This document shows, piece by piece, positions 19,967-59,593 of a DNA stretch of 64,000 nt. Both the position numbers and the translations under genes were made by a program. Under the pieces are notes generated by a model. It did not search any database, was not told the DNA's origin, and was given only the letters and a program-made list of their open reading frames with translations. The first letter of the stretch is position 1, and every line of letters starts with the position of its first letter. Source of the DNA: an uncultured Candidatus Micrarchaeota archaeon (GTDB lineage: Archaea > Micrarchaeota > Micrarchaeia > Anstonellales > Bilamarchaeaceae); the NCBI GenBank assembly GCA_903835385.1, contig CAILMQ010000013.1:2687-66686 (forward strand). Reading direction: 5' to 3'.

Positions 19967-21175
19967 TCACCTGGTTTTATACCTTAGGAACGCCCCGATT
20001 CCGCCGAACCCGGCCAGGAATTGCGCGCCTTCGGTGGTGTTCGTGGACACTATCTCTACCGGGATGTTGTTCCCCTTGGCAAGGTCCGCGAGCTCGTCCA
20101 CGAGCGACTCCTCTCCTTTCAGGCGCATGGAGGCGTTGCATTTCGGGCACGGGATGCGCTCCTCAGGCTTGTCGCGCGTCACGCGGAAATCCTCGCTTGC
20201 GCAGCTCGGGCACAGGTAGCTCGCCTTCTTGTGGGGCAGGCCTTCGGAAAGCAGCACCTTTTCCGCCTGCTTTGACATTATGGCCTCTCGCACCGGCTTC
20301 TCGCCGTAGGTGGCGAGGCCTTCGGACACTACCTCCTTCATGAACGAGTCCACGAGCTTCTTCTCCTTTATGGCCTCCTGCTCCTCCAGCAGCGATTCGC
20401 TCTTGGCGAGCACCTCGCGTATGCCGTACTCGTCGGTGTAGCCCGTGTCCACGGGGCCGAGTATCTTGTGCTGGTAGTTGAACGGCGACATCTTCAGGAA
20501 GTTGTCCTTGGTAGGGCCCGGCCCCCCTACGAGGATGGCCTTGGTCCTGCCGAGGAAGTGATTGTCCATGGCCTCGCCCACGCGGACGTAATACTTCTCT
20601 ATGGACTCCTCTATGAGCCGCTGGTAGCGCCTCGCCGACTGCCCTCCCTTCCTGATTTTCTGGTGCGCCGTGGAGTTCATCTTCTTGACTATGTGTATCT
20701 CCGTGCCCCGTATCAGGGCCAGTGTCGCCTCCCTGCCGTCCATCACCACCACGCCGTAGGAGTCCGTGACCTCCACCATGCGCTGTAGCGGCTCCAGGAA
20801 GAAACGGGAATCGCACCTGTAGATTCCGACCTGTAGCTGCTGCGGCGGTTCCAGTGAGAATATCTCTATGTCCGTCTTGGCCGGGTTGTCGGATATGTTG
20901 CCGCAGAACACCGCGATGCCGTTGGCAGGCGCCTTCTTGAAAAGCTTCAGGTGGCCCATTATCCTCTCGAGCGCGCCCATGACGTTCGTGCGCGTGGATT
21001 TTGATTTGATGTTGGACGCCTGGGACAATTCCTCGCGGAGCTTGTTGCCCATCTCGTGCACCGGCGAGCCCGCGGGTATGTACACCGATATGAGCTCGGT
21101 GCCGCTGCCCTTGTACTCGCCCAGCTTCCTTAGCGTCTTCTTGAGGGTATAGACCCTTTCGCTGTCAATCGCCAT
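19967..21175 (-). CDS. prf1: peptide chain release factor aRF1
   Basis: NIKS motif (NIKSKSTR), GGQ motif (KIRKGGQSARRYQR), and a Zn-ribbon insertion in domain 3 (CPSC...CPKC). Confidence 0.9.
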   Translation of the reverse strand: MAIDSERVYTLKKTLRKLGEYKGSGTELISVYIPAGSPVHEMGNKLREELSQASNIKSKSTRTNVMGALERIMGHLKLFKKAPANGIAVFCGNISDNPAKTDIEIFSLEPPQQLQVGIYRCDSRFFLEPLQRMVEVTDSYGVVVMDGREATLALIRGTEIHIVKKMNSTAHQKIRKGGQSARRYQRLIEESIEKYYVRVGEAMDNHFLGRTKAILVGGPGPTKDNFLKMSPFNYQHKILGPVDTGYTDEYGIREVLAKSESLLEEQEAIKEKKLVDSFMKEVVSEGLATYGEKPVREAIMSKQAEKVLLSEGLPHKKASYLCPSCASEDFRVTRDKPEERIPCPKCNASMRLKGEESLVDELADLAKGNNIPVEIVSTNTTEGAQFLAGFGGIGAFLRYKTR

Positions 21176-21854: not shown

Positions 21855-23609
21855 ATGTGCGGCATCATCGGCTATGTAGGCAGCAGGAAGGCGTCCGAGG
21901 TCATAACCGAAGGTCTCAAAAGGCTCGAGTACCGCGGCTACGATTCGGTTGGCATAGCCGTAGCGCAGGGCAATTCCATAGACCTGCGCAAGGACAAGGG
22001 CATGGTCAACCCAGTCGCCGAGTCCATGCGGTTTCTGGACGTCTCGGGTACGCTCGCCTTAGGTCATGTTCGATGGGCAACTCATGGGGTCCCGTGCAAG
22101 GAGAATGCCCATCCGTTCATTGACTGCACCAGGACAATCGTCCTCGCCCACAACGGCGTAATAGAGAACTATTCGGAGCTTAAGGACGAGCTGAAGAAAG
22201 CCGGCCACAGGTTCAGCTCGGAAACCGATTCCGAAGTCGTGGTCCACCTGGTCGAGGAGGAGCGGAAGAAGATGCCTCCGCTGAAGGCGTTCATGGCCGC
22301 GGTCAGGAAGCTCAAAGGCTCGTACGCGCTGCTCTGCACCGTTGCCGATGGCGCGGAAACGCTTTACTGCGCGAGACGCAACAGCCCCCTGGTTCTCGGT
22401 GTCGGGAAGGGGGAAATGTTCGCCGCCTCGGACATCCCGGCAATGCTCGCATATACGAAAACGTTCGTGCCGCTCGAGGAGGGCGATATCGCGGTCCTGT
22501 CCAGGAACGGCTACAAGGTCTACGACGCCAACGGAAAGGAGGCGGTCCGCAAATCCATCACCGTGGAATGGAGCCTGGACATGGCCGAGAAGGGCGGTTA
22601 TCCGCATTTCATGCTCAAGGAGATAAACGACCAGAAGCACTTTGTCCACGAGAGCCTTGCCGCGGACGTCACGAACGCCCGGGCGATGGTCGCGGGCCAC
22701 GAAGCCATCGACATCATCGCCTGCGGCACGTCCTACCACGCCGGCACGATTCTCAAGATACTGCTTTCACGCGAGCTCGGGAAGCGGGCCGAGGCGTTCA
22801 TCGCGTCCGAATATCCGTTCGTCGCGAACCCCGGCAAAAAAACCCTTGTCATCGCCATATCGCAATCCGGCGAGACCGCGGACACCATGCAGGCGGTGAA
22901 GTTCGCCAAAAGCAGGGGCTCGAAGGTCCTGAGCCTCACCAACGTGGTGGATTCGTCCATCACCCGCATATCGGACGAGGTCGTCTACCTGAACGCCGGG
23001 CCGGAAATCTCGGTCGCGGCGACGAAAACATTCACCTCCCAGGCGGCCGTGATATACAAGCTCGTTTCCAATCCAGGCCCTGGCCAGGAGAGGCTCGCGG
23101 CCATCCCATCGCTCATAGAAAAGGCCATGGCCCAGGAGAGCGCCATCCGCGCGGTTGCCGCGAAAATCGCGGACAAAAAGGACATATTCTTCATCGGGCG
23201 CGGCCTGAATTATCCTGTTGCCATGGAGGGCGCGCTCAAGCTCAAGGAGATATCATACCTCCACGCCGAGGCATACGCGGGCGGCGAGCTCAAGCACGGC
23301 CCGCTGAGCCTGATTGAGAAGGGAGTCCCGGTCATCGCCGTCGCGCCAAAGGACGAGTCCCTGCCCAAGCTCTTCGGCAACATCAAGGAGGTCAAGGCAA
23401 GGGGCGCATACGTGGTGGCGCTCACGGATGACGAGGCGGTGCGCAACGAGGCGGACGTCTCCATCCCGCTCCCGCCCGCGGCGGACGCAACGCTCTATCC
23501 GTTCCCGGAGATAATCATTCTCCAGCTGCTCGCTTATCATGTTTCGGTGCTCCGCGGCATAAACCCGGACAGGCCGAGGAACCTGGCCAAGAGCGTTACC
23601 GTGGAATAA
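21855..23609 (+). CDS. glmS: glutamine--fructose-6-phosphate aminotransferase
   Basis: N-terminal MCGIIGYVG (Ntn Cys) and two SIS domains. 584 aa. Confidence 0.9.
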   Translation: MCGIIGYVGSRKASEVITEGLKRLEYRGYDSVGIAVAQGNSIDLRKDKGMVNPVAESMRFLDVSGTLALGHVRWATHGVPCKENAHPFIDCTRTIVLAHNGVIENYSELKDELKKAGHRFSSETDSEVVVHLVEEERKKMPPLKAFMAAVRKLKGSYALLCTVADGAETLYCARRNSPLVLGVGKGEMFAASDIPAMLAYTKTFVPLEEGDIAVLSRNGYKVYDANGKEAVRKSITVEWSLDMAEKGGYPHFMLKEINDQKHFVHESLAADVTNARAMVAGHEAIDIIACGTSYHAGTILKILLSRELGKRAEAFIASEYPFVANPGKKTLVIAISQSGETADTMQAVKFAKSRGSKVLSLTNVVDSSITRISDEVVYLNAGPEISVAATKTFTSQAAVIYKLVSNPGPGQERLAAIPSLIEKAMAQESAIRAVAAKIADKKDIFFIGRGLNYPVAMEGALKLKEISYLHAEAYAGGELKHGPLSLIEKGVPVIAVAPKDESLPKLFGNIKEVKARGAYVVALTDDEAVRNEADVSIPLPPAADATLYPFPEIIILQLLAYHVSVLRGINPDRPRNLAKSVTVE

Positions 23610-30045: not shown

Positions 30046-31398
30046 TTATAAACTATTATTAGTTTGTAATACCTTGACGTAATATGCCCCCCGCGTTCTA
30101 CCGACTCTCCTTAGCAGTCCCCTTTTTATGAGGTCGTTCAGGTCTGAAACTGCCATTGGATGTGAAACTGCAGCCATTTTCTCGTATGTTTTTGAAGTTA
30201 GAGAAGGATTCTTTTCTAGGTATGATATAGCTCGTTTTTGCCGCTCATTAAGGTCTGCTCTAGCTATGTGCGATTTGTTGCATAGTGTCACTCTGAAGAA
30301 GCTTCCCAGCTCTTCAAAAATGGGTTCCGGCAAGCCCGTCTCTTTCATTGCTGAACGCATTCTTGGTATGCCTGTTGCAAACCCTTCAATCAGTTTAAGG
30401 TCGCGCAAGAGTCGGTAAGTTAAATGATTTCTAGGAACTGAAATACTGCCCAAAATCTGAAGGCTCAAACCCGTTGGCAGCGTGCCAGGGTTTATGAACT
30501 CAATTCTGTCATCAAAAATATTTATTTGAACTGCATCCCGACTTAGATAATCTCGATGAGTTAGGGCGTTTATCAGGGCTTCGCGTATAACTGGGAACGG
30601 ATATTCTGGTTGTTCCTCCCGCTCCAACTTTTCTATTTTTACGGCAACACGCGTATTCTTCTTTATGAACTCTTCAGCTTCCTTTAGGTTTTCCAAAATA
30701 GTAGCCTTGACAATCCTTGAATCGATTATGTCGACTGGCTGATCACCCCTAAATCTCACGAGCTTAATTTCATTTTGGGGTAAAAATCTGGCCGGTTCTT
30801 TTGCGAAGAATAGAATGGCTGTGTTTTTTATCCATGAGTCGCCATTTTTACCTAGCAACCCTAAGTTGAATAGGTATTCTTGAACTTTGGTCTCGTCGAA
30901 CACGAGTTCTGGCGACCGTTTCTTTACAAATTCTTGTATCTTGTTTATATTCAAATCTTCGAGCTTTGCTTGTGAGCGTGACTCGTCAAAAGAGAGGATG
31001 TGCCGGTTAATCAGATAATCCTGAAGCGTTCGCCCTTCCAGTTTGGTATTGCTACTGCCAGCGCGGTAATATACTATGCCCCCGAAGGTGCAAAACGCTC
31101 CTTGGCCAATTTGATAGATTTCGCATACTACTGTTTTCTTTCCTTCTTTCTCCTCAACAAAGATTTTGTGGAATGGAACTGGAGAAACTTGTTGTATCGC
31201 TCCTTCAAGGCGCTGTTGCAGCGAATCGATCTCTTTCGCTGGAACGCCTATTGTTTTACCATCATCTGCAATTCCAATAACTATCTTACCGCCGGAGGCG
31301 TTGGCGAAAGCGCAGGTAGTCTTGCTTATCTCTTTGAAATTTTCTACGCTGTGCTTGAATTCCAAGCCTTGGCTTTCCGTGTTCATAGAATCCACCAT
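30046..31398 (-). CDS. AlbA_2 (Schlafen-like) DNA-binding domain plus HATPase_c_4 ATPase protein
   Basis: N-terminal ...ESQGLEFKHSVENFKEISKTTCAFANASGGKIVIGIADDG...; the C-terminal winged helix resembles the RecG-C-terminal/AlbA_2 family (weaker call). Lies in a low-GC segment. The ORF-track N-terminal extension to 31899 is spurious. Confidence 0.6.
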   Translation of the reverse strand: MVDSMNTESQGLEFKHSVENFKEISKTTCAFANASGGKIVIGIADDGKTIGVPAKEIDSLQQRLEGAIQQVSPVPFHKIFVEEKEGKKTVVCEIYQIGQGAFCTFGGIVYYRAGSSNTKLEGRTLQDYLINRHILSFDESRSQAKLEDLNINKIQEFVKKRSPELVFDETKVQEYLFNLGLLGKNGDSWIKNTAILFFAKEPARFLPQNEIKLVRFRGDQPVDIIDSRIVKATILENLKEAEEFIKKNTRVAVKIEKLEREEQPEYPFPVIREALINALTHRDYLSRDAVQINIFDDRIEFINPGTLPTGLSLQILGSISVPRNHLTYRLLRDLKLIEGFATGIPRMRSAMKETGLPEPIFEELGSFFRVTLCNKSHIARADLNERQKRAISYLEKNPSLTSKTYEKMAAVSHPMAVSDLNDLIKRGLLRRVGRTRGAYYVKVLQTNNSL

Positions 31399-31436
31399 AT
31401 CGTTAAGTATCTGTAAATAATAATACTTAACAATAT

Positions 31437-31733
31437 TTAAAGATATGCACGTATGGCAAGCACCCACCCGATGCAGAAGGACAGTGTTTCCCTGTCGAAT
31501 GCCTTTTTCGTATAATTGTATTCCGCAGCCTCCTTGGGGAACATGCTTGAGAGTTCGGCATAGCTTAGGGCCGTGAATATGGCGATGGCTGCCGAGATGA
31601 GGAATGCGAGCCAGAGCATGTCCCCGGCGAGCCCGGCTCCGATGGCTATGAGCGCGTATATGCCCGCGCCCAGTATCACGCCTATGCCGTACATCGTTGT
31701 GCTGAATAGCCCGAGCCCGCGTTTGAGCGCCAC
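31437..31733 (-). pseudogene. N-terminal remnant (TM1-2) of an APC-family amino-acid permease, truncated after ~98 codons
   Basis: MALKRGLGLFSTTMYGIGVILGAGIYALIAIGAGLAGD...SYAELSSMFPKEAAEYNY is a canonical APC N-terminus. The reading frame stops exactly where the low-GC island begins. Confidence 0.55.
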
Positions 31734-31785
31734 GATTCATGCTGTGAAATCCCATTTTTAAAAATCTTCCTTCCGAAAGCCCCCT

Positions 31786-32784
31786 ATGGCCAAAAAACCA
31801 CAGACTGAAAGCCGCAAGAGGGACCATATCCAGATAGCCCTGGAAAAGGACGTGCAATACTGCCGCACCACCGGCCTGGAGCGGGCGGAGCTTCTCCACA
31901 ACGCGCTTCCTGAAGTGGATTTCGATTCCATTGACCTTTCCATGAAATTCCTCGGGAAGAAGATATCATGCCCCCTGCTCATCTCGGCCATGACCGGCGG
32001 CTATCCTGAAGCGAAAAAGATAAACGAGGAGCTTGCCGCCGCCGCGCAAAAGCACAACATCGCCTTCGCGCTCGGCTCCCAGCGCGCCATGCTCGAGAAC
32101 CCCGCGCTCAGGGAAACCTATTGCGTGAGGAGCGTCGCACCGGACATCCCGGTAATAGGCAACATCGGGGCAATGCAGCTCAAGAGCTGCCCGGTGGACA
32201 AGGTGCTCGGGCTCGTGTCCGCAGTGGAGGCGGACGCTCTCGCAGTGCATCTCAATCCGTTGCAGGAGGTAATCCAGCCAGAAGGCGACCGTGATTTCTC
32301 AGGCGTGCTTGCCGCAATCGCGAAGCTGTGCGAGAAATCCGGCGTGCCAATAATAGCCAAGGAGACCGGGACAGGAATCTCCCAGGACGTTGCGCTGAAG
32401 CTCAAGGAGGCGGGCGTGGCCTGGATTGACGTCGCAGGCGCGGGCGGTACATCCTGGTCAAAGGTGGAGTACGTGCGCAACGGCGCGACACCCGGCTTCG
32501 GGGAGTGGGGGATACCTACGCTGGATGCGCTCATAGAGTGCAGGGGCGTGCTTCCCATGATAGCCAGCGGCGGCATCAGGAGCGGCATTGACGCGGCGAA
32601 GTGCGTCGCGCTGGGCGCGGACTTGGCAGGTGCCGCCTATCCGTTCCTCAAGGCCCTGGGCCGCAGCCAGGCGAAGCTCGACGAGACGCTCACGCTCTGG
32701 GAGGCGCAGATGAAAAAGGCGGCTTTCCTCACCGGGTGCAGGACGAGGGACGAGCTCAAGAAGGCGAAGATGGTTTTCCGCTGA
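31786..32784 (+). CDS. fni: isopentenyl-diphosphate delta-isomerase, type 2 (FMN-dependent)
   Basis: TIM-barrel IDI-2 motifs (SAMTGG, ...GAGGTSW..VE...), 332 aa. Confidence 0.85.
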   Translation: MAKKPQTESRKRDHIQIALEKDVQYCRTTGLERAELLHNALPEVDFDSIDLSMKFLGKKISCPLLISAMTGGYPEAKKINEELAAAAQKHNIAFALGSQRAMLENPALRETYCVRSVAPDIPVIGNIGAMQLKSCPVDKVLGLVSAVEADALAVHLNPLQEVIQPEGDRDFSGVLAAIAKLCEKSGVPIIAKETGTGISQDVALKLKEAGVAWIDVAGAGGTSWSKVEYVRNGATPGFGEWGIPTLDALIECRGVLPMIASGGIRSGIDAAKCVALGADLAGAAYPFLKALGRSQAKLDETLTLWEAQMKKAAFLTGCRTRDELKKAKMVFR

Positions 32785-32954
32785 CCTATTGCAGTCCACA
32801 AAAGTTTTGCAACTTTTGTGTCCTGCGTAATAGCAAACCGCGTCTCGGTCTTATCCGGCAACTACTGTTGCAAGACTTTCGCGGTTCGCTATAATCTTGT
32901 GTCAAATCATGGCTGAAGATATAATTAAATACCGGTCGCGGCATATCTGTTTCC

Positions 32955-34607
32955 ATGAATATGAATAGGCACGCCGCACCGCCAGCCGGCACGCGCATAT
33001 ATCCGCCCAAAATGCAGAGGGACGTCGAGACGATGCGCCGCCTGTACCAGAAGCTGAACGCGGGGCCGCTCTTCGAGCAGCACGTGCTCAGGGTGCTTGA
33101 CTACGCCATGCAGGAGAACATAGTCACCGCGTCCGAGGTCGAAGCAGGGGAGAGGCTCAACCGCAGGGTCGAGCTGCTGATACTCTGCCATCACGTGCGC
33201 GACATGCCGTCCCTTCCATGGCGCGGCCTCATAGCCAGGGACATGGCGGATTATCTCGCGCTGCACAGGCTGGACCTGGGCCCGCACCGCGACTGGTCCG
33301 CTTATGCGGCGCTGCTGCGGAAGCCCGACGGCGCGCTGCCGCCGGCCGTTCTCGCGGTGCTGGCCGAGAAGGCGCTCTACAGCGAGACCTCGCTGCCGTC
33401 GTTCTACGGGGTGACGGAAAGGTCGGCTCCAGGCATACGCATCCCGCGGGACTGGGAGGCGGACAGGAAGGCCATGGCCGAGCCGGACCTTGTCGTTTAC
33501 CGGAAGCTGGCGAACCTGCTCGGCTACCATGACACATACAACAGGATAGGGGCGCACGCGCTCGGCTCGCTCCCGGACTTCGAGGCCCTGCTGCATGAGG
33601 TAAGGATGGAAAAGGCGCGCCTGGCCCAGGCGCTAAGGCGCACCGGAGAGGCGGTTTCGAAGCTCGTGGCACGCGTATGCGACGAGCTCACCCGCCTGGG
33701 AGTACCCTACGTGGTGCAGGGCAGGGGCGAGAAGAGCGAGGCCAGCCAGGCGCTCAAGCTCAGGGAGCGGCGTTCCAAGGGCGAGGAGCTCACGGTCGCG
33801 GGGACCCACGACAGCGTCGCGCTCAGGCTCATAATATGCCGCGCAAAGGGCGCGATGACCGAGAACCTCGGAGGCGTGCGCATTGCCGAGAACGTGCTGT
33901 TCAGGAAGGCTGGCACGCTCAGGCAGGCCGGGCTCTTCCCTTACATAGACGTGAAGCCGGAGATGTTCATCGCCAGGCCCAAGCCCAACGGCTACCGCAG
34001 CGACCACTACGACTTCCAGCTCGTGGCGGACGGCGAGCGGAACCCGAACTACGTCAACGTGGAGGTCCAGGTGCTCACGCAGGAGATGTACGAGTTCAAC
34101 ATGCACGGCGGCGCCGCGCACATCGCGTACAAGGACGCGAAGGACTACGAGGCAGTGGCCGGCATGGGCGACATACGCGCGGTCCTGCTGCGGAACTACC
34201 AAAGGCTGCTCGACGACCTCCAGACCATGCGGGGCAGGCGGAGGAACGGGGACGACCGGTACTCGAAGTTCCCTGCGGCTGCGGCCGGGTCCGAGGCCGT
34301 CGTGCGCATCAGCGTCAGGAGGTTCGACGGGAACACCGCCGGCCTGGAGGTCATGCACCAGGAGGGCGACCTGGCCCTGGACGTCCTGGCCAGGAGCGGG
34401 CTGGACCTGCGCAGCCACGCGGTGGACGGCCGCTGCTCGGACAAGGCCGTGCCGGGGCAGACCGTGGCGGTGGTGCAGAAGCCGGATGCCATGGGCGCAC
34501 AGCTGGCCCGGGCATTGCACCAGTCGTCGGCCCACTTCAACGCGTTCACCATGAACAAGCTGGCCGAGATTTTCCGGGAAGATGCCGGTAAAAAGCAGAG
34601 ACACTAA
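32955..34607 (+). CDS. RelA/SpoT-homolog (RSH) protein: (p)ppGpp-synthetase-like nucleotidyltransferase domain with a long N-terminal extension
   Basis: HDSVALRLIICRA...FRKAG.LR...IARPKPNGYRSDHY...VEVQVLTQEMYEFNMHGGAAHIAYK parallels the RelA_SpoT synthetase core (D..A.R.I, PK.NGYQS.H, E.Q.RT..M, AAH..YK). Confidence 0.65.
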   Translation: MNMNRHAAPPAGTRIYPPKMQRDVETMRRLYQKLNAGPLFEQHVLRVLDYAMQENIVTASEVEAGERLNRRVELLILCHHVRDMPSLPWRGLIARDMADYLALHRLDLGPHRDWSAYAALLRKPDGALPPAVLAVLAEKALYSETSLPSFYGVTERSAPGIRIPRDWEADRKAMAEPDLVVYRKLANLLGYHDTYNRIGAHALGSLPDFEALLHEVRMEKARLAQALRRTGEAVSKLVARVCDELTRLGVPYVVQGRGEKSEASQALKLRERRSKGEELTVAGTHDSVALRLIICRAKGAMTENLGGVRIAENVLFRKAGTLRQAGLFPYIDVKPEMFIARPKPNGYRSDHYDFQLVADGERNPNYVNVEVQVLTQEMYEFNMHGGAAHIAYKDAKDYEAVAGMGDIRAVLLRNYQRLLDDLQTMRGRRRNGDDRYSKFPAAAAGSEAVVRISVRRFDGNTAGLEVMHQEGDLALDVLARSGLDLRSHAVDGRCSDKAVPGQTVAVVQKPDAMGAQLARALHQSSAHFNAFTMNKLAEIFREDAGKKQRH

Positions 34608-34747: not shown

Positions 34748-35206
34748 CTAGACTCCTTTGAACTCGTCCGTCTCCTTCACCACGTTGAGCACCATGTTGG
34801 TGTTCGTCTTTTCCACGTGCGCTATGGCCAGTATGCGCTTAATGAGCCCGCTGAGTTCCGACCTCGACCTGCACATCAGGATGGCGATGGAGTCGTACTG
34901 GCCCGTCACGTCGTAGACCGCCGCGACGCCGGGAAGTTTCGCTATCCTCTCCTGCACGTCCAGCAGCGAGCCGTGGGATATGGATATCTGCACTATGGCC
35001 ATGAACTCGTAGCCGAGCCTGAGGAAGTCCAGCCTCGCGGAGTAGCCCTTCACGTAGCCGTTCTTCTCCAGCTTTCTCACCCTCTCCATGAGGGAGGCAG
35101 GGCTCAGCCCCACGGCCTGCGCCAGCTGGCGGTAGGAGCGCCTGCAGTCCGACCGCATCTCCTCTATGATTCTCCTGTCCACGGCATCCAATTGTTCGGA
35201 TTTCAT
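34748..35206 (-). CDS. lrp: Lrp/AsnC family transcriptional regulator
   Basis: MKSEQLDAVDRRIIEEMRSDCRRSYRQLAQAVGLSPASLMERVRKLEKNGYV (HTH) plus a RAM domain. Divergent from glnA. Start at M14 of the track ORF. Confidence 0.8.
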   Translation of the reverse strand: MKSEQLDAVDRRIIEEMRSDCRRSYRQLAQAVGLSPASLMERVRKLEKNGYVKGYSARLDFLRLGYEFMAIVQISISHGSLLDVQERIAKLPGVAAVYDVTGQYDSIAILMCRSRSELSGLIKRILAIAHVEKTNTNMVLNVVKETDEFKGV

Positions 35207-35339
35207 CGGTTTCGCCCCTTTATTGCGAAACGTTTGTTCATTCATTTTTTAAACAATGCTGTCAAATGAAAGGCAAAATCATGAAAAATATTATATACGG
35301 CACGCAACGAATCAGCGTAACGATAAAAACGGTGGGAAC

Positions 35340-36674
35340 ATGGCGCAAGCGAAAAATGAAATCTTCGAGAGGGTGGAAAAGGACGGGGTGAAATTCGTGA
35401 ACCTGCAGTTCACGGACCTGCTGGGAATGGTGAAGAGCATAACCCTTCCTGCAAGGCATTTGGACAACGCGTTCCAGAACGGCGCATGGTTCGACGGCTC
35501 CTCGGTGGAAGGGTTCGCGAGAATCCACGAGTCGGACATGTACCTGAAGCCAGACGCGTCCACATACGCGGTGATACCATGGCTCGATTCGGACAAGGGG
35601 CAGACCGCGAGGTTCATCTGCGACGTCTACAGCCCCGACGGCAAGCCGTTTGCCGGTGACCCGAGGCACATACTGAAAAGGACATTGGCCGAAGCCGAAT
35701 CAATGGGCTTCGAGTACAAGACCGGGCCGGAAATCGAGTTCTTCCTGTTCAGGAGGGAGAACGGCGCCCTGAAGCCCCTGCCGCACGACACCGGCGGCTA
35801 TTTCGATTTCACCTCCGACAAGGCATACGACGTGCGCAGGGACATGAACGTGGCGGTGGAGGCTTTCGGCATCAACGTGGAGGCCTCGCATCACGAGGTC
35901 GCCCTGGGCCAGCACGAGATAGACTTCCGCTACGACAACGCGCTCCGCTCCGCGGACGCGACCTCGACCGTGCGCTTCGTGCTCAAGGCAATCGCCCAGC
36001 GCCACGACCTGCACGCGACCTTCATGGCAAAGCCCATCGCAGGCATAAACGGGAGCGGCATGCACGTGCACCAGAGCCTGTTCAGGGGGGCGGACAACGC
36101 CTTCTACGACGCGTCGGACAAATACGGGCTGTCCAAGGAAGCGTATTCCTTCATCGCGGGCCAGCTCGCCCATGCGAAATCCATGGCAGGCATACTTTCG
36201 CCCACCGTTAACTCGTTCAAGCGCCTGGTGCCCGGCTACGAGGCGCCGGTCTATATCTCCTGGGCGAGGATAAACCGCTCGGCCCTCATACGCATACCGA
36301 AAATCTCCGCCGGAAAGCCGGGCAGCACGCGCATAGAACTGCGGTGCCCTGACTCGACCTGCAACATCTATCTCGCCTTCGCCGTGATGCTGAGAGCCGG
36401 GCTTGCGGGCATAAAACAGGGGCTGGTTCCGCCTGAGCCGGTGGAGGAGAACCTGTTCCATTTCGACGACAAGAAGCTGGAGGCCATGAAAATCGCCACT
36501 TTGCCGCATTCCCTCTGGGACGCGCTCAAGGAGATGAAGGCCGACCCGGTGATACGGGAAACGCTCGGCGACTCGACGTTCGCGAAATACGTGGAGGCCA
36601 AGACCGAGGAATGGGACTCCTTCCGGCTCCATGTCACGCAGTGGGAGCTGGACCAGTACCTTGAGAAGTATTGA
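35340..36674 (+). CDS. glnA: glutamine synthetase type I
   Basis: GS beta-grasp and catalytic motifs (KPIAGINGSGMHVHQS, NSFKRLVPGYEAP). Start at MAQAKNE. Confidence 0.9.
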   Translation: MAQAKNEIFERVEKDGVKFVNLQFTDLLGMVKSITLPARHLDNAFQNGAWFDGSSVEGFARIHESDMYLKPDASTYAVIPWLDSDKGQTARFICDVYSPDGKPFAGDPRHILKRTLAEAESMGFEYKTGPEIEFFLFRRENGALKPLPHDTGGYFDFTSDKAYDVRRDMNVAVEAFGINVEASHHEVALGQHEIDFRYDNALRSADATSTVRFVLKAIAQRHDLHATFMAKPIAGINGSGMHVHQSLFRGADNAFYDASDKYGLSKEAYSFIAGQLAHAKSMAGILSPTVNSFKRLVPGYEAPVYISWARINRSALIRIPKISAGKPGSTRIELRCPDSTCNIYLAFAVMLRAGLAGIKQGLVPPEPVEENLFHFDDKKLEAMKIATLPHSLWDALKEMKADPVIRETLGDSTFAKYVEAKTEEWDSFRLHVTQWELDQYLEKY

Positions 36675-38095: not shown

Positions 38096-39592
38096 ATGTC
38101 AAGAAGGCAGACCCCGGGCCCTACAGTGGCTCCCACGTGCGCGGAGCGGCCCCCCAGGCAGAAACCGAAATTCCCAGAACCTGTGCCAGAGCCCCGCAGC
38201 CAGCCGGAGGGCGGCGAAAGCCTGCTCGGGAAAGTGCTCGATGGCAAATACCTCATTATCAAGAAACTCGGTTCAGGCGGCATGGGACAGGTATATCTCG
38301 CCGAGGAACAAGAGGGAGGCAGGCAGTTCGCCATAAAAGTGCTGGACTCATCGGGCCGCCCCGGCCTTTTCCAGAAGGAGGTCATGGCTCCGATAGACAT
38401 CGGGCACGAGAACGTGGTCAACATGTTCGGCTATGGCAGGACGTCCAAGGGGCCCGACGGCTACCCGTTCATAGTGATGGAATACCTTAAGGGCATGGAC
38501 TTGGGCAAGCTGCTTGAAAGCAAGACGCGGCTCGACTGGCCCAGGGCCAGGGACATAATACTGCAGGTCTGCGACGCGCTCCAGGCAGCCCACCAGCAGG
38601 GGGTGGTCCATTTGGACATGAAGCCCATGAACGTATTCCTGGTGGACCGTCCCGGGAAGCCTTTTGTGAAGGTCCTGGATTTCGGCATCTCCAAGCTTTC
38701 CGAAGAAATGGCCGGCGCAGAGGCTTCCTCGGGCAGGGGTTTTATCGGCACTCCGGCATACGCGCCGCCGGAGCAGGCACACGGGTCCAAGGAGTGCGAC
38801 CATCGCTCCGACATATATAGCGTTGGCGTCATGCTCTATGAGATGCTTTGCGGCAGCCTGCCCTTTGTCAGCGATGCTCCGCCCGGCGAACGCGTCAAGG
38901 ATATCATGCGCATGCACGCGGAGTGCGAGCCGCCGCCTTTCTCCACCCACGGTCCTACGACCGGCATACTGGACGGCGTCGAGGCCGCGGTCATGCGCTG
39001 CCTTGCGAAGAAAAAAGAGGGCAGGTTCCAGTCCATGACCGAACTGGCACGGGCGCTGCCCGCCGTAGGAAGGCCGTCGCAACCGGCCCGGGCGCTGGAG
39101 CTGCCGGAGGGGGACCTTGAAACGAGGCCGCGGCTCAGGACGCAGAAGTCTTCGCCCCTGGCCGCAATAATCACAGCCGCGCTCATCACGTTCGGGGCGG
39201 CCGGAGCATGGCTCTACTACACCCGCCACGACAAGGGCGCGGTTCCTGCGGAACAGGACGCGCAGCCAGTTGCCGTTGCCGGGCCAGACGCCTCAGCCGA
39301 GCATCCTGCTGAAAAAAAGAAACATGCTTCTAAGGGCGCGTCCAACGCCGGGCCCGTTTCGCCTGCGAATGCCGGGGAGGCGAAGAAGCAGGCTCCTAAG
39401 AAGCCCCGTGGCCGGGCACACGGAACCGGCACGTCCGAAGCCGAGAGTGCCGCGCCTGCCGAAGATTCCGAACACGGGCAGCAACCCGACAAGGAAGCGT
39501 CCGAAAACGATCCGAATAATAACATTGGCGAGCAGTCCGGTCCGGACGAAGAGGAGCCTTCGAACGAAAGCGAGGCTGAAGAATCAAAATAA
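38096..39592 (+). CDS. Hanks-type (eukaryotic-like) Ser/Thr protein kinase with TM segment and acidic low-complexity tail
   Basis: GSGGMGQVY (G-loop), AIKVL (VAIK), HLDMKPMNV (catalytic loop; non-RD, HLD in place of HRD), DFGISK, GTPAYAPPE. TM segment LAAIITAALITFGAAGAWLYY. Confidence 0.85.
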   Translation: MSRRQTPGPTVAPTCAERPPRQKPKFPEPVPEPRSQPEGGESLLGKVLDGKYLIIKKLGSGGMGQVYLAEEQEGGRQFAIKVLDSSGRPGLFQKEVMAPIDIGHENVVNMFGYGRTSKGPDGYPFIVMEYLKGMDLGKLLESKTRLDWPRARDIILQVCDALQAAHQQGVVHLDMKPMNVFLVDRPGKPFVKVLDFGISKLSEEMAGAEASSGRGFIGTPAYAPPEQAHGSKECDHRSDIYSVGVMLYEMLCGSLPFVSDAPPGERVKDIMRMHAECEPPPFSTHGPTTGILDGVEAAVMRCLAKKKEGRFQSMTELARALPAVGRPSQPARALELPEGDLETRPRLRTQKSSPLAAIITAALITFGAAGAWLYYTRHDKGAVPAEQDAQPVAVAGPDASAEHPAEKKKHASKGASNAGPVSPANAGEAKKQAPKKPRGRAHGTGTSEAESAAPAEDSEHGQQPDKEASENDPNNNIGEQSGPDEEEPSNESEAEESK

Positions 39593-43064: not shown

Positions 43065-43547
43065 ATGCCAAAGAAGAAGCTCGCCATGGGCTGGTTCACG
43101 TTCACCTGTTCCGAGGACAACACCATACTTTTCGTGGAGCTGCTCAACCAGTACTATTTCCAGTGGAAGGAGCTGGTGGAGTTCAGGCACTGCAAGGTGC
43201 TGAAAACGGACAACAGGCACGGCAGGTTCGATGTCGCGTTCGTCGAGGGCGCGATATCCACGAAAAAAGAGGAGGACAAGCTGAGGGAGATACGGAAGAA
43301 ATCGAAAAAGCTCGTTGCCGTGGGGGCGTGCGCATGCACCGGCCTCCCGGCAGGCCAGCGCAATTCCTTCACGCCGGAGATGCTAAGCAGGATAACGCCG
43401 TTCCTTGAGGCGTACCAGCTGCGCGACAAGATAGTGCCTCTGGGCGCCATAGTGAAGGTGGACGATTCGCTGCCCGGCTGCCCCATGGTTCCGGGGCAGT
43501 TTGTCCAGCTTCTCGAGAAATACCTTGCCGAGTTCGGAGTGAAATGA
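43065..43547 (+). CDS. [NiFe]-hydrogenase small subunit, minimal (sulfhydrogenase-delta / MvhG-like, proximal cluster only)
   Basis: TCSEDN ... GACACTG ... GCPMVPGQF Cys motifs of the NuoB-like small-subunit fold. 160 aa. Confidence 0.7.
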   Translation: MPKKKLAMGWFTFTCSEDNTILFVELLNQYYFQWKELVEFRHCKVLKTDNRHGRFDVAFVEGAISTKKEEDKLREIRKKSKKLVAVGACACTGLPAGQRNSFTPEMLSRITPFLEAYQLRDKIVPLGAIVKVDDSLPGCPMVPGQFVQLLEKYLAEFGVK

Positions 43548-43548
43548 C

Positions 43549-44844
43549 ATGCATGCTGAAGACTTCGATATAAACATAGAGGACATGAGCAAGATAGAGG
43601 GCCATGCCTCGCTCGAGCTCAAGGTGAGGAAAGGCGAGGTCCAGGACGTGAAGCTGAAGGTATTCGAGAACAGGCGCTTCTTCGAGTTCGCGGTCCGCGG
43701 CAAGAACTACGCCGCAGTGCCGCAGCTGGTGTCGAGGATATGCGGCACCTGCTCGGCCGCGCACCTCATGTGCTCCATAAAATGCATAGAGCACGCGTTC
43801 GGCTTCCAGCCCACGGAGCAGACCAAACTATTGCGCGACCTCACATTGTACGGCGTCAACATCCGCGACCATGCCATGCATCTTTTCCTTTTCGTGCTGC
43901 CGGACCTGTTCGGAAAGGACTCGGTGCTCCAGTTCGCGGATTCCGGGCTGGAGCACAGGCTGCTTCATCGGGCGCTTGCCATAAAGCAGGCGGGCAACAC
44001 GCTTTCGGCCGAAGTCGCCGGCAGGACGGTCCATCCCCCGTTCCCGGCAGTGGGCAATTTCCTCCACGTGCCCTCGAAGGAAAAGGCCAAAAGCCTGATT
44101 GTAGAGCTCAAAGGCGTGCGGGAGAGCGCCATAGAGTTCGTGCATTTGTTCGCTGAAAAGGATTTCGTCTTCGAGATGCCGGACATAGATTTCGTGGCGA
44201 ACGTGAACGAGAACTACAGCTACATCGGGGACGGCATATGCACCCATTCCAAGGGCTTCTGCATCCCGGAGCACGGGTTCGAGAGGTTCTTCAAGGAGAG
44301 CGTGGTGCCCTATTCCCAGGCATCGGGCTTCAGCTTCCAGGGCACGCCCTACATGGTCGGGGCGCTGGCCAGGATGAACATCAACTGCACCAGCCTTAAT
44401 CGGCGCACGCGCGAGGACCTGACCGAGGACAACCTATTCCCCTCGTTCAACATTTATCATAATAATCTGGCCCAGGCGATAGAAATCGTGCATTGCATAG
44501 ACTCGTCCATAGACCTGTTGGAGAACTGCGATTTCAGGCAGGAGCCGATACTGAAAGTCGAGCCCAAGGAATCCGAAGGCGTGGGCGTCATGGAGGCGCC
44601 CAGGGGAACCTTGTATTACCATGGGAAGCTGGACGCCAAGGGGAACTTCACTTATGCGAATCTGGTGATTCCCACGGCCCAGAACCAGGTGCTCATGGAG
44701 AAGGCGGTCGGCAGGCTGGTCCAGCAGCGCGTTACCGAGGACAAGAAACCGAAGCAGATACAGAAGGAGGTTGAGACCCTCATCCGGGCGTTCGACCCCT
44801 GCATGTCCTGCGCCACGCATTTCCTGAAGGTGAAATGGAAATGA
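43549..44844 (+). CDS. [NiFe]-hydrogenase large subunit (group 3-like)
   Basis: N-terminal RICGTCSAAH and C-terminal DPCMSCATH Ni-Fe ligand motifs. Confidence 0.85.
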   Translation: MHAEDFDINIEDMSKIEGHASLELKVRKGEVQDVKLKVFENRRFFEFAVRGKNYAAVPQLVSRICGTCSAAHLMCSIKCIEHAFGFQPTEQTKLLRDLTLYGVNIRDHAMHLFLFVLPDLFGKDSVLQFADSGLEHRLLHRALAIKQAGNTLSAEVAGRTVHPPFPAVGNFLHVPSKEKAKSLIVELKGVRESAIEFVHLFAEKDFVFEMPDIDFVANVNENYSYIGDGICTHSKGFCIPEHGFERFFKESVVPYSQASGFSFQGTPYMVGALARMNINCTSLNRRTREDLTEDNLFPSFNIYHNNLAQAIEIVHCIDSSIDLLENCDFRQEPILKVEPKESEGVGVMEAPRGTLYYHGKLDAKGNFTYANLVIPTAQNQVLMEKAVGRLVQQRVTEDKKPKQIQKEVETLIRAFDPCMSCATHFLKVKWK

Positions 44845-47955: not shown

Positions 47956-48951
47956 ATGGCCATTCTACAAAGACTACCCGCTCCGGATCCTAAGGCCCTG
48001 GAAGCGAGAGGACGGGCGATCTCAGACCACTTTGTGACGCGGATGGAGCCGATCATCAACATCCTCGAGGCAAAACAGATTCCAGGCGTTCGGGAGAACA
48101 CTAATGACAAGACGTGGCTTACTGATAGGAACGCCAAGGCCGAGGACAGCGAGTTCTTATCAGACGCGATGAAGGGCCGCCCGTCCTTCCTCGCACGCAT
48201 AGACGATGATTTCCGCGCCCTGGGCCGTGTCATCTGGGATGAAAGGGCGGTGAGTGCGGCAGCCGACCTCCTGCTTCCGCTTCTGGACGTATCGGAGAGG
48301 ACGTGCTTCGGCTATTACGGCCATCAGTACCGCACCATGCAATACGCCGAGATACTGCTGAATAAGCGGTCCATGTCTAATCGGTCCATGACGGATGCGG
48401 AACAGGCCGCGCAGCTGCTCGGAGCCCTGATGCACGACATAGGCAAGGCCGCAGTGCCAGGGGAGGTCCTGCGCATAAAGGGGAAACTTAGCGATCCGGA
48501 AAAGGAACTCGTCAATCTGCATCCAAGTCATGGCAAGTCCATCCTGCTTGCTGCATTCGCTTCGCTTGCCGAAGCCGGAACCCATATAGCGTATGGGGAT
48601 GTGATAATCGATATCGCATTCAGCCATCATGAAAGATACGGCGATACCGGGGGATACCCGCTGGGCATCCGTGGAACCGAGATATCGGTCGGCGCCAGGA
48701 TTACCGGCTTTTGCGATGCGATGGATAGCATGACAACCAATCGGATATACGACCGCCACCCGAAAACCTTCAAGCAGGCCAAGATCGAAGCGGTGAGGAA
48801 ACTGAACAAGCATTTCAACGGAACAATAGTCGTGGATTTCCTACGTGCTGCGAAAACTAACGAAGTTACGAAAATAATCCTCGATATCATAAAGAGTGCC
48901 GGCGCCATGCCGGAACAGGCGCCTCAGCGGGACCTTATCCAGTCAAAATAG
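47956..48951 (+). CDS. HD-GYP domain protein (cyclic-dinucleotide phosphodiesterase family)
   Basis: LMHDIGK (HD) and HHERYGDTGGYP (HHExxDGxGYP) signatures. Confidence 0.75.
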   Translation: MAILQRLPAPDPKALEARGRAISDHFVTRMEPIINILEAKQIPGVRENTNDKTWLTDRNAKAEDSEFLSDAMKGRPSFLARIDDDFRALGRVIWDERAVSAAADLLLPLLDVSERTCFGYYGHQYRTMQYAEILLNKRSMSNRSMTDAEQAAQLLGALMHDIGKAAVPGEVLRIKGKLSDPEKELVNLHPSHGKSILLAAFASLAEAGTHIAYGDVIIDIAFSHHERYGDTGGYPLGIRGTEISVGARITGFCDAMDSMTTNRIYDRHPKTFKQAKIEAVRKLNKHFNGTIVVDFLRAAKTNEVTKIILDIIKSAGAMPEQAPQRDLIQSK

Positions 48952-49621: not shown

Positions 49622-50200
49622 TCAAGAGCCTCTGACGGCGTTGAGCCAGAGGCCGCTTGCCGCCAAGTCGGTATCCTTATATCCAGCCTCGGCCGCCGCC
49701 TTCATGACATTTTCCATGTCCTCAATCGCTTCGCATCTCAGGCAGGTGTATTCCAGCGCCTTCAGGGCGCTCCTCACCAGCCCGGCGTCATCCAGATGCG
49801 CCATGCTGAACTTCTTGAGCGGCTCACGCCCTGCCGCGAGCGCCACCTGGCCGCAGTGGTCGGAACCGATGTTCCTGAGGGCTTTGAGCATGGCTGCCTT
49901 CACCGCCCGTCCTTCGTCGCCGGGCTCGCTCTCGCGGGCAAGGGCATGGAGGAGCGGCTCGAAAGAATAAATGGAACGCAGGCGCCCGAGTGTCTTCGCG
50001 GCGCTTTTGCGTTCTGCCGCCACCGCGCTTCCGAGCTGGTTCTGTGCCAGCGTGCATTCAAGCTGCGTACTGCCGTGGAGGCGCCGCAGCTCGCGCTTCT
50101 GCCGCGCGAGCACTATCGCGTATACATCCTCCAATCCCTTGGGCGCTACGGGCCAGTGGCGCCTGGCGGCTAGTTTGTCATTCCGGCTCATGTATGCCAT
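49622..50200 (-). CDS. short HEAT/PBS-lyase-repeat protein, paralog 2
   Basis: TLGRLRSIYSFEPLLHALARESEPGDEGRAVKAAMLKALRNIGSD. About 60% identical to paralog 1. Confidence 0.65.
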   Translation of the reverse strand: MAYMSRNDKLAARRHWPVAPKGLEDVYAIVLARQKRELRRLHGSTQLECTLAQNQLGSAVAAERKSAAKTLGRLRSIYSFEPLLHALARESEPGDEGRAVKAAMLKALRNIGSDHCGQVALAAGREPLKKFSMAHLDDAGLVRSALKALEYTCLRCEAIEDMENVMKAAAEAGYKDTDLAASGLWLNAVRGS

Positions 50201-50225
50201 TATGGCTTTTGATGTTTAAAATGGT
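50196..50225 (-). promoter_or_regulatory. conserved promoter block of HEAT paralog 2
   Basis: attatggcttttgatgtttaaaatgg. Confidence 0.5.
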
Positions 50226-50340
50226 TTGTAAGGCGGAGGGGGGAGGCCGGGATAGACGAAATATAGACGAGAGGTTAAGATAAGTCGGCAGGTCATCGCC
50301 TCCCGATAGGTCTAAAATCTTTGGGAAAGAAGTAGAATTC

Positions 50341-51381
50341 ATGAAAAGATTTGTGATACTGTTTCTGATTCTAGGGTTGTTTATTGCTGGCTGTACTCAA
50401 CAAGCCGAAACAAAAAATATAGGTTCAAACAAAACCATCTCGAACGAGACTCAAACCCAGCCGAATCGAACCGTTCCGCCTCAACAAGCACCCATACAAA
50501 CATACGCCTGCCCGGACGGAACGATTGTCACAAACTTGACAAATTGCCCAGCACAAACAGCTAATAACAGTCAAACAACTTCAGAAAACACCAGCATAAC
50601 AACATATGTATGCTTCGATAATTCGACAGTGGACGACTCAACAAAGTGTCCTCCGGCTCCGACCATCAATGTTTCTAAAGATTATTGCAGTGATGGAACC
50701 AAAAAGCTCGCTTGTTCTATAACAAAGCCCATTTTTTGTGACGTCAGTCTCGAACTCGTAGAGAAAGCCAGCAGATGCGGGTGTCCGGCGAATTCGGATC
50801 CTTATCAGGATACATGCTTACCGAGATGTTCCGACGGCACACATTCTGGTTCGTGCAGTTCTACTAAACCCGAAAAATGTTATAACGGAACATTGACAGA
50901 TGTTCCTGCGAGTTGCGGTTGCCCGGTAGGGTATAAATATGATGGTTCAACTTGTGTTGTTCATGTTATGTCACCCGAGGAACTTTTCGTGAATACCTCG
51001 GTCTTACAAAACAGGTATGCTGGATTGACTAACTTCGATGTAACTGTTGTTCGAGCCGGTTATTATGAAGAAACATCATTTTTAACTACGGAGCGATATA
51101 TTCGACTTGATATAAACATTAAGAATCGTGGAGACAAACCAGAATATCTATTTGCTTCTCATATGTCGCTTGTCGATAGTAATAACCACCAATATTCGGA
51201 AACTTATGGCGGCACTTTTGAAGGTGGGGAATTTCAATCGGGAGTAGAAAGTAGTGGGTCGGTTTTATTCGATTTAGGAAGTTCTACGATGCCGGATGAA
51301 GTAACCTTGCACATCGATGATGGGTACGATAATAACTTCAAAATAATCGTTAAAACAGTTATAATTACATTAAAGAACTAG
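50341..51381 (+). CDS. Cys-rich secreted lipoprotein (lipobox IAGC) with repeated CPDGT modules
   Basis: MKRFVILFLILGLFIAGCTQQ signal/lipobox, at least five CP(D/A)GT/CGCP repeats. Low-GC gene. Confidence 0.6.
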   Translation: MKRFVILFLILGLFIAGCTQQAETKNIGSNKTISNETQTQPNRTVPPQQAPIQTYACPDGTIVTNLTNCPAQTANNSQTTSENTSITTYVCFDNSTVDDSTKCPPAPTINVSKDYCSDGTKKLACSITKPIFCDVSLELVEKASRCGCPANSDPYQDTCLPRCSDGTHSGSCSSTKPEKCYNGTLTDVPASCGCPVGYKYDGSTCVVHVMSPEELFVNTSVLQNRYAGLTNFDVTVVRAGYYEETSFLTTERYIRLDINIKNRGDKPEYLFASHMSLVDSNNHQYSETYGGTFEGGEFQSGVESSGSVLFDLGSSTMPDEVTLHIDDGYDNNFKIIVKTVIITLKN

Positions 51382-51426
51382 TTCGCCTCTCGACATGTCT
51401 AAAAATCTTGGGAAAGTAACAAATAC

Positions 51427-51804
51427 ATGGAAAAAGTCGTGATGCTGATTCTGATTTTTGGTTTACTCTTTTATGGTTGCACAAATCAAATCACCGGAAA
51501 TGTTTTGAATCAACATGCTGCAGTTGGTTGTTGGGTTTCAAACAGTTTGGCTATTGCAAAGATTGAGATAAACTCTGACGATACATTCGCAGCGTATACG
51601 CAAAATCCTCAGACTGGAGCATATTCAGTGGCATATAAGGGCAAATGGGTTGCAGAAAACGAAACGACGATTATAATGTCATATCAACTAAATAACGATA
51701 TTGTGAATCAAACAGCGACATATGTAGAAAGTACCGATTCCGTAGTAACATCAATATTAATCCCAATGGTTGGTCAGTTCCCAGAAACATTGTATAGATG
51801 TTGA
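51427..51804 (+). CDS. small lipoprotein (YGC lipobox), paralogous signal peptide
   Basis: MEKVVMLILIFGLLFYGCTNQ. Its upstream block is nearly identical to that of the 50341 gene. Confidence 0.45.
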   Translation: MEKVVMLILIFGLLFYGCTNQITGNVLNQHAAVGCWVSNSLAIAKIEINSDDTFAAYTQNPQTGAYSVAYKGKWVAENETTIIMSYQLNNDIVNQTATYVESTDSVVTSILIPMVGQFPETLYRC

Positions 51805-51901
51805 ACATGTATGAAAGTTATACCCAGAGCGCGCTCTGGCTCCGTTTTGGAGGGGAACGAGACGCCCTTACATTTAAATCGCTTGACGTTGTAGTGAAAT
51901 T

Positions 51902-59591: not shown

Positions 59592-59593
59592 TT

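Follow-up and report, generated by a model that had tools for sequence, protein, structure and literature searches.

A divergent RelA/SpoT-family gene of Micrarchaeota with the predicted architecture of a truncated long RelA/SpoT homolog and a conserved synthetase site

Whether archaea possess an alarmone system resembling the bacterial stringent response is a long-standing question, and it is raised by a gene of the RelA/SpoT homolog (RSH) family on a 64,000-nucleotide stretch of DNA (contig CAILMQ010000013.1 of assembly GCA_903835385.1; the whole stretch is called the window below) from an uncultured Candidatus Micrarchaeota archaeon. Atkinson et al. (2011) found archaeal RSHs to be sporadic and single-domain, with no long RSHs among them (PMC3153485), and archaea appear only in the methods of a 2019 preprint that updates the RSH classification. 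The survey of Li et al. (2021) lists four DPANN phyla with RelA/SpoT genes that were predicted to be bacterial acquisitions, a list that does not contain Micrarchaeota (PMC8407392), and alarmones are not mentioned in a 2025 study of 163 Micrarchaeota genomes. Here we describe the window protein as a member of the RSH superfamily with a synthetase domain, encoded in an archaeon. Judged from the sequences analyzed, it belongs to a distinct RSH subfamily whose named members are all Micrarchaeota and which combines a truncated long-RSH architecture with altered sensor features.

The open reading frame (ORF) appeared in the ORF list exactly as an earlier note on this DNA had given it, and all four motifs quoted there (DSVALRLII, PKPNGYRSDHY, VEVQVLTQEMY and GGAAHIAYK) were found in its translation. 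The family identity proposed in that note was borne out by a search with profile hidden Markov models (HMMs), in which Pfam PF04607 (RelA_SpoT) matched residues 261-396 with 39.6 bits against a gathering cut-off of 27 (E = 7e-10); the same model matched 28/28 members of the family alignment on which the counts below are based. Partial matches below threshold were obtained with the NCBIfam models SpoT, RelA and spoT_relA, and the alignment to the SpoT model started at residue 171, upstream of the Pfam domain. A single-sequence search of PDB chains found Rel and RelA around the 'PKPNGYxSxH ... EVQ..T ... AAH..YK' block. The family profile matched the PDB sequences of Rel, RelA and SpoT with E-values from 1e-25 to 1e-18 (B. 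subtilis Rel, E = 1.2e-25), while its best match to the small alarmone synthetases (SAS) was 14 orders of magnitude weaker (E = 4e-11). The match of the window protein to the RelA/SpoT family is far beyond chance, and its identity to any characterised RSH is below 20%.

In the AlphaFold2 model built on the 28-sequence alignment (mean predicted local distance difference test score, pLDDT, 89.9; predicted template modelling score, pTM, 0.89), an N-terminal part made up of helices only is followed by an alpha/beta core and a long helix; a linker with little order then leads to a small domain rich in beta structure, and helices close the chain. When this full-length model was compared with the PDB by Foldseek, long RSHs ranked at the top (B. 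subtilis Rel 6yxa, E = 1.5e-10 over 585 columns), and full-length SpoT and ribosome-bound RelA were also among the top matches. Crystal structures of the Rel HD and SYNTH domains reached template modelling (TM) scores of 0.55-0.68, with 0.68 for the N-terminal region of S. aureus Rel, while RelP and RelQ were matched only at E ~1e-4 and CapRel at E = 8e-4 (TM 0.17). The hhalign comparison with RelA-type long RSHs gave a probability of 99.8% (E = 1e-27) and was colinear over residues 172-544, spanning the linker, SYNTH, TGS and the next helix. Similarly, the alignment of the family profile to Rel began at Rel residue 157, which corresponds to the last HD helices and the helical linker; here 'VYRKLANLLGY' of the window protein takes the place of 'IFAPLAHRLGI', in a region that long RSHs have and SAS do not. 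Sequence and model together point to an order of pseudo-HD domain, linker, SYNTH, TGS and short helical tail, and hence to a truncated long RSH (Table 1). An identity as a SAS was considered and rejected, based on three extra regions homologous to long RSHs and the far weaker profile E-value for SAS. This picture modifies the domain layout in the earlier note: the synthetase core recognized there is present but lies in the middle of the protein and not in its C-terminal half, the stretch without Pfam assignment before it amounts to ~250 aa instead of ~330 aa, and a folded domain of ~100 aa after the core, the TGS homolog, had been overlooked.

Modelled alone (residues 1-215), the N-terminal part reached a pLDDT of 89, and only the N-terminal catalytic regions of Rel exceeded a TM score of 0.5 in the Foldseek comparison (T. 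thermophilus Rel, 0.53-0.54 with a probability of 0.92-0.99; S. aureus Rel, 0.51), with other HD-superfamily proteins (YpgQ, PDE5 and SE1688) ranking lower. The hhalign comparison with RelA-type proteins left the first 170 residues unaligned, and with a profile of just two intact-HD sequences the probability was 86% but the register unreliable. The register reported here was taken from an intact-HD profile assembled from PDB-derived Rel sequences, which aligned colinearly with a probability of 92% (E = 5e-7). In this alignment C78-H79 pairs with the H77-D78 dyad of RelSeq, D83 with D82, and E138 with D144, the Asp of 'LADRLHN'; H43 pairs with H53, the first metal-binding His, only at a relaxed alignment threshold (mact 0.1). 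The position of the HD dyad, Cys-His in the window protein, reads Tyr-His in most members, and the His is followed by Asp in only 1/28. 'LADRLHN' has become 'LAEKALY' in the window protein, neither the 'ED' nor the 'RLHN' residues are retained, and Pfam HD_4 matched 0/28 members. Sequence and model thus indicate that the N-terminal domain is a homolog of the (p)ppGpp hydrolase domain without the canonical catalytic motif, as is the case in RelA. The proposal that this region is a novel regulatory domain did not survive, as it folds and aligns like the HD domain of Rel in the full-length Foldseek, the N-terminal Foldseek and the hhalign comparison with the intact-HD profile.

On the other side of the core, the C-terminal domain is assigned as a TGS homolog on the strength of the hhalign alignment, which runs colinearly through TGS, even though Pfam TGS matched none of the 28 members. 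The protein stops ~40 residues past this domain, with only the first helices of the next domain aligning, and ZFD/CC and RRM/ACT domains are absent. A TGS His stacks on the 3'-CCA end of tRNA in B. subtilis Rel (H420) and E. coli RelA (H432) (PMC7797070). The corresponding column holds G482 in the window protein and Gly, Asn, Ser, Asp or Gln, never His, in the members that have the domain. The window protein has a short C-terminal tail. Several relatives have far longer tails that are rich in Lys, a hint of nucleic-acid binding.

The synthetase site presented a different picture of conservation. D286 (nt 33810-33812) aligns to D264 of B. subtilis Rel, and E370 (nt 34062-34064) to E324, the equivalent of RelSeq E323. 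Asp264 and Glu323 of RelSeq are essential carboxylates, and synthesis is lost with either D264G or E323Q (PMC13299517); the former also serves as the standard variant of Rel that is dead for synthesis (PMC7797070). D286, E370, A388 and H389 were present in 28/28 sequences, R257, K260, K268 and G385 in 27/28, and K343, Y347, H351 and Y392 in 26/28, followed by G346 (24/28) and N345 (23/28). The motif for the ATP phosphates, R-x-K-x3-S-x3-K, was found with an additional residue separating the Arg from the first Lys and with Ser or Lys at the position of S264. The acceptor motif, [YF]-I-x-x-P-K-x-N-G-Y-x-S-x-H together with A-A-H-x-x-Y-K, was found as F338-IARPKPNGYRSDH and GGAAHIAYK, conserved in 23-28 of the 28 sequences except at position 338 (Tyr, Phe or His in 20/28, Met in 4/28). 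Members of the family are ~20% identical overall and the mean column identity of the alignment is 28%; against this average, the conservation at the catalytic residues is the pattern expected from purifying selection on catalysis.

Table 1. Coordinates of the RSH-family gene, its predicted domains and its neighbours in the window
Feature	Position	Strand	Basis and remarks
RSH-family gene	32955..34607	+	ORF list; ATG start, 550 aa, stop codon included
Pseudo-HD domain (predicted)	33006..33449 (~residues 18-165)	+	All-helical; Foldseek, hhalign, column counts
Last HD helices and helical linker to SYNTH (predicted)	33450..33704 (~residues 166-250)	+	Profile against PDB, hhalign, NCBIfam
SYNTH nucleotidyltransferase domain (predicted)	33705..34154 (~residues 251-400)	+	PF04607, profile alignment, column counts
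TGS-like beta-grasp domain (predicted)	34299..34484 (~residues 449-510)	+	hhalign; beta strands of the model at 449-508
C-terminal helices (predicted)	34497..34604 (residues 515-549)	+	Align with the start of the helical domain after TGS; short basic tail
Type-2 isopentenyl-diphosphate isomerase (IDI2)	31786..32784	+	TIGR02151, 389 bits against a cut-off of 281
A/T-rich box	32920..32931	+	~30 bp upstream of the ATG; read by eye
Lrp/AsnC-family regulator	34748..35245	-	Conserved downstream neighbour in the close subfamily, convergent
Type I glutamine synthetase (GlnA)	35256..36674	+	TIGR00653, 522 bits; divergent from the Lrp gene

To what extent the gene belongs to its archaeal lineage was addressed by its distribution and surroundings. 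Among 5.8 billion clustered proteins only six close relatives were found (45-100% identity), and searching this index with a broad alignment returned no new members, only ordinary bacterial RelA. The distant family members came from an exhaustive HMMER search alone, in which the family profile gave 366 matches with E <= 1e-3 among 1.84 billion representatives, only 25 of them with E <= 1e-10, and which yielded ~20 further proteins of 410-580 aa that match over most or all of their length. A scan of a genome collection returned nothing with the single protein and, with the family alignment, one species representative, OY970229.1, a closed 1.57-Mb 'Candidatus Micrarchaeota' chromosome that is the closest genome. 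All family members with a named source are Candidatus Micrarchaeota or Candidatus Bilamarchaeaceae (Micrarchaeia, Anstonellales), and most members are annotated as 'hypothetical protein'. The exhaustive search found no close bacterial relative, and the first matches beyond the family stood at E ~1e-10. In a neighbour-joining tree of the linker and SYNTH region (229 columns, 167 sequences, Poisson correction, 100 bootstrap replicates), the family together with 31 further proteins formed one side of the deepest split (bootstrap 55/100) and the close subfamily was recovered with 100/100; as its sequences were hits already chosen for their similarity, the tree speaks for coherence and not for origin, and it cannot identify a donor lineage. 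The window itself carries archaeal hallmarks (aRF1, Orc1/Cdc6 and an intron-containing tRNA). An assembly chimera or bacterial contamination was rejected, as the same gene order was found in a closed archaeal chromosome and several independent metagenomes.

IDI2 is located directly upstream of the RSH gene also in the closed Micrarchaeota chromosome (L001) and in L005, and the two genes are adjacent as well in L006/L007 (the contigs of P0008, 27% identical) and on the contig of P0014 (21% identical). Five genes separate them in L003, no such adjacency was seen in the contexts of P0015 and P0021, and the upstream genes on the contig of P0006 had no Pfam match. Downstream, the Lrp and GlnA genes recur in the close subfamily. 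Since the named members are all Micrarchaeota and neighbours are kept at 21-27% identity, these patterns argue for a long residence of the gene in the lineage and not for a recent acquisition of a bacterial toolkit. The A/T-rich box TATAATTAAATA is a possible archaeal TATA box, which would provide the gene with its own promoter and a leaderless transcript. The nine contexts that we read contained neither a toxin-antitoxin-like nor a conserved small partner gene, and no mobile element flanked the RSH gene. A toxSAS or toxin-antitoxin module was thus rejected: there is no partner gene, and the neighbours are IDI2 and, in the close subfamily, the convergent Lrp gene. A functional link of the gene to isoprenoid-lipid or nitrogen status via its conserved neighbours would be speculation, since common descent could by itself keep these genes in order. 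Bacterial SpoT senses fatty-acid synthesis via its TGS domain, as reportedly found by Battesti and Bouveret in 2006.

Two further features were observed around the locus. Between the gene of a 258-aa protein of unknown function and IDI2, the window carries a low-GC gene with Schlafen/AlbA_2 and HATPase_c_4 domains (30046-31899, minus strand), and the 30-32 kb block has a GC content of 0.455, compared to 0.52-0.63 in most other 2-kb blocks. There is no gene at this position in L005 and L006 and an unrelated 220-aa gene in L001. Compared with the other loci, the Schlafen-type gene looks recently inserted; it is possibly defence-related. Genes for Hanks-type Ser/Thr kinases occur in the syntenic region of the window (38096-39592, plus strand), of L001 (11702-13120 and 16622-18010) and of L003 (16196-17593). 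The closed Micrarchaeota chromosome has a second kinase gene as an insertion that directly separates the RSH gene from the Lrp gene.

A comparison with known systems revealed the most overlap with the long RSHs (B. subtilis Rel, 6yxa; E. coli RelA, 5kpv; SpoT, 7qpr). The window protein shares their domain order through the start of the helical domain as well as the catalytic Asp and Glu and the ATP- and acceptor-binding motifs, and like RelA it has an HD domain without the catalytic dyad. In contrast, long RSHs have a length of ~730-750 aa compared to the 550 aa of the window protein, carry the ZFD/CC and RRM/ACT domains for docking on the ribosome that it lacks, and possess the CCA-stacking TGS His, EXDD/RXKD and the 'QIRT' Arg where it has Gly482, no such motif and Leu; overall identity is only 13-18%. 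Atkinson et al. (2011) found none of these long enzymes in archaea (PMC3153485), whereas the window protein comes from an archaeal (DPANN) lineage. SAS (RelQ/SAS1 and RelP/SAS2) have the SYNTH nucleotidyltransferase fold and motifs in common with it, but are single-domain proteins of ~200-230 aa, to which the window protein adds long-RSH-like N- and C-terminal domains. The RSHs of plants and algae are likewise non-bacterial descendants of long RSHs with degenerate HD motifs and a retained TGS-like C-terminus. Unlike the window protein, they are much longer, carry extensions for targeting or at the N-terminus, and have the canonical motifs 'EVQIRT' and 'AAHWxYK'. The best matches of the family profile outside the family include sequences of eukaryote/plastid type, judged by eye only, and no specific relationship to plants or algae is established by them because a ranking of HMM scores is not a phylogeny. 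Within DPANN, RSH genes are likewise known, by annotation, from Diapherotrites, Woesearchaeota, Pacearchaeota and Nanoarchaeota (PMC8407392). Finally, the tRNA pyrophosphokinases of the toxSAS/CapRel type also combine the SYNTH fold with extra domains, but the structural likeness is weak, as detailed above, and the window gene has no antitoxin-like neighbour or defence island.

Considering all of these features, we favour, with moderate confidence, a monofunctional nucleotide 3'-pyrophosphokinase that is derived from a long RSH and most likely functions as a (p)ppGpp synthetase with regulatory pseudo-HD and TGS domains. In the reaction that we infer, the beta,gamma-pyrophosphate of ATP would be transferred to the 3'-OH of GDP or GTP as acceptor, giving (p)ppGpp. 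The catalytic Mg2+ would sit at D286 and E370, the phosphates of ATP would be bound through R257, K260 and K268, and the acceptor pocket would be formed from F338...PKPNGYRSDH...H389...Y392. With hydrolase activity presumably lost, the pseudo-HD and TGS domains would serve as intramolecular regulators, as in RelA. Because ZFD, RRM/ACT and the CCA-stacking His are all absent, the bacterial route via ribosome and deacylated tRNA is unlikely to operate unchanged, and the trigger would probably be a cue or partner other than deacylated tRNA on a starved ribosome.

Several observations weigh against a (p)ppGpp synthetase of this kind. The alignment of the catalytic residues recommended in the earlier note gave a mixed outcome: both carboxylates, D286 and E370, are present and invariant, but the window protein has neither EXDD nor RXKD and instead reads K334-P-E-M337. 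We take this site to lie just before [YF]-I-x-x-P-K, as reportedly described by Sajish et al. and as read off alignments of RelA and Rel; EXDD is reportedly the mark of monofunctional RelA and RXKD that of bifunctional Rel. Among the relatives the position varies (KLKD, KITD, ESED and others), with a final Asp in 16/28, which the window protein does not share. The Arg of 'EVQIRT' is replaced by Leu374 in the close subfamily including the window protein, and Gln372 is Ile in 10/28 relatives. Given Leu374, K-P-E-M and the variable Gln372, the acceptor or the kinetics may differ from those of the known enzymes. H43, H79 and D/E138 are the most conserved residues of the N-terminal domain, for which reason some residual metal binding or hydrolase function may persist there. 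Furthermore, a scan of the window ORFs of at least 150 aa detected no stand-alone alarmone hydrolase, neither a small alarmone hydrolase (SAH) of the HD_4/Mesh1-like type nor a Nudix protein, a negative that holds for the window and not for the rest of the genome; in bacteria, toxicity is the usual consequence of a synthetase that no degrading activity counterbalances (Atkinson et al. 2011, PMC3153485).

The altered guanosine-type motifs (Leu374, the missing EXDD/RXKD and the variable Gln372) would also be in keeping with a protein of unchanged fold and chemistry that used a different acceptor and pyrophosphorylated ATP or ADP, giving (pp)pApp, or the tRNA 3'-CCA end, as enzymes of the toxSAS, CapRel and FaRel2 type do, and thereby acted as a growth-arrest or defence effector. 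RNA binding is suggested by the TGS domain and following helices, which bind the tRNA CCA end in Rel (PMC7797070), as well as by the Lys-rich tails of relatives, and CapRel structures were among the Foldseek matches. We nevertheless regard this alternative as rather unlikely. The CapRel match is far below those to Rel, SpoT and RelA (E = 1e-10), the CCA-stacking His is missing in all members, descent is from long RSHs and not from SAS, and instead of a bicistronic partner of the toxin-antitoxin type the gene has housekeeping neighbours conserved across the lineage. Less likely still is a bifunctional enzyme, in which a non-canonical metal site of H43, H79 and D/E138 would continue to hydrolyse the alarmone, as in Rel and SpoT. 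These residues, the top-conserved positions of the domain (H43 in 27/28, H79 in 25/28, and an acidic residue at 138 in 27/28, with Asp in 20/28 and Glu in 7/28), correspond in the alignment to three of the four metal ligands in Rel, and no separate hydrolase was seen nearby among the window ORFs scanned. On the other hand, the dyad reads [Y/C]-H instead of H-D with an Asp after the His in a single sequence, the 'ED' and 'RLHN' residues are lost, HD_4 does not recognize any member, and H79 itself is replaced by Asn in P0003 (54% identity) and by Asp in P0004 (51% identity).

Compared to such a bifunctional enzyme, a catalytically dead scaffold or regulator that only keeps the RSH fold is more improbable again. 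The extreme divergence from characterised RSHs and the substitution of some canonical residues would fit a pseudo-enzyme, but D286, E370, A388 and H389 are invariant amid the low mean column identity, and R257, K260, K268, K343, Y347, H351, G385 and Y392 are each conserved to at least 90%. About as improbable is a recent horizontal acquisition from Bacteria as part of a signalling toolkit with the HD-GYP-like protein and the Hanks-type kinase. RSHs are overwhelmingly bacterial, those of other DPANN phyla are predicted to be of bacterial origin (PMC8407392), sigma-70 homologs are also encoded in the window, and the 32-34 kb block has a GC content of 0.63 against ~0.52-0.60 in most 2-kb blocks, low-GC blocks aside. 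Against a recent transfer stand the lack of a close bacterial relative in the exhaustive search, the grouping of the family in one clade (well supported for the close subfamily, 55/100 for the wider grouping) with exclusively Micrarchaeota among its named members, and the synteny retained at 21-27% identity. The HD-GYP protein and the Hanks kinase to which the earlier note had drawn attention do exist in the window, as an HD_5 protein (47956-48951) and the kinase described above. They are not adjacent to the RSH gene, however, but lie 13 and 3.5 kb away, respectively, in unrelated contexts, and Hanks-type kinases recur in the syntenic region of relatives; with the deep Micrarchaeota family, the kept neighbours and the lack of a mobile flank, the joint acquisition of a bacterial toolkit put forward there could not be upheld.

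The remainder of the window contained additional features of interest. The protein encoded at 47956-48951 (plus strand) matches Pfam HD_5 and HD and reaches 46 bits with the NCBIfam model of a cyclic di-GMP phosphodiesterase response regulator (cut-off 400); it is not an alarmone hydrolase of the HD_4/Mesh1 type. In a window of otherwise archaeal character, two adjacent genes on the minus strand encode sigma-70 homologs of bacterial type (58541-59638, 365 aa; 59648-61144, 498 aa). The larger one exceeds the cut-offs of the Pfam models for Sigma70 regions 2, 3 and 4 and matches the C-terminal model of RpoD with E = 5e-48; the smaller one matches this RpoD model with E = 7e-22. The pair recurs in independent assemblies, which speaks against a chimera, and is located among archaeal mevalonate genes (AcnX, UbiD/UbiX, a GHMP kinase and an amino-acid-kinase-family gene that may encode an isopentenyl phosphate (IP) kinase). 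Castelle and colleagues reportedly described sigma-70 genes in DPANN, mainly in Woesearchaeota, in 2021. A tRNA found by Rfam at 54494-54643 (minus strand) spans 150 nt and thus has an intron of ~79 nt, while ARAGORN returned no tRNA in the window. Beside it, the block at 50001-54000 has a low GC content (0.43) and contains, in addition to a transglutaminase-like gene (51902-53164), several ORFs that match no family; it may be an integrated element. Genes for an ATP-citrate lyase beta-type subunit, isocitrate dehydrogenase and aconitase are found close together at 1226-7292 (minus strand), and a NiFe-hydrogenase large and small subunit pair at 43065-44844. This central metabolism is unusually rich for DPANN and consistent with Micrarchaeota lineages of large genome size (PMC12892359). 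Inteins were observed in the relatives' GlmS (L001, 149-3370) and aRF1 (L006/L007; L006, 3360-6092); the GlmS (584 aa, 21855-23609) and aRF1 (402 aa, 19967-21175) of the window are short enough to be intein-free.

The RSH gene is a concrete candidate for testing (p)ppGpp synthesis in archaea. Its family clearly descends from long RSHs and has kept a complete-looking synthetase site, while the parts that tie the bacterial enzymes to the bacterial ribosome were lost. If the favoured (p)ppGpp synthetase is active, it would show how the chassis of a stringent factor was adapted to the needs of an archaeal cell and possibly to a symbiotic way of life; if its product differs, the chemistry of the RSH family would be extended. 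A bolder idea, which we put forward tentatively, is that Micrarchaeota, including those with larger genomes that are possibly less host-dependent, have passed on by vertical descent an ancient derivative of long RSHs, and that it drives a true archaeal alarmone response based on (p)ppGpp or a related nucleotide. Its trigger would then be something other than the bacterial ribosome and deacylated tRNA, with isoprenoid or nitrogen status, as hinted by IDI2 and the Lrp-GlnA pair, being candidates that might be sensed via the altered TGS and pseudo-HD domains. If true, an archaeal lineage would for the first time be credited with a native alarmone system.

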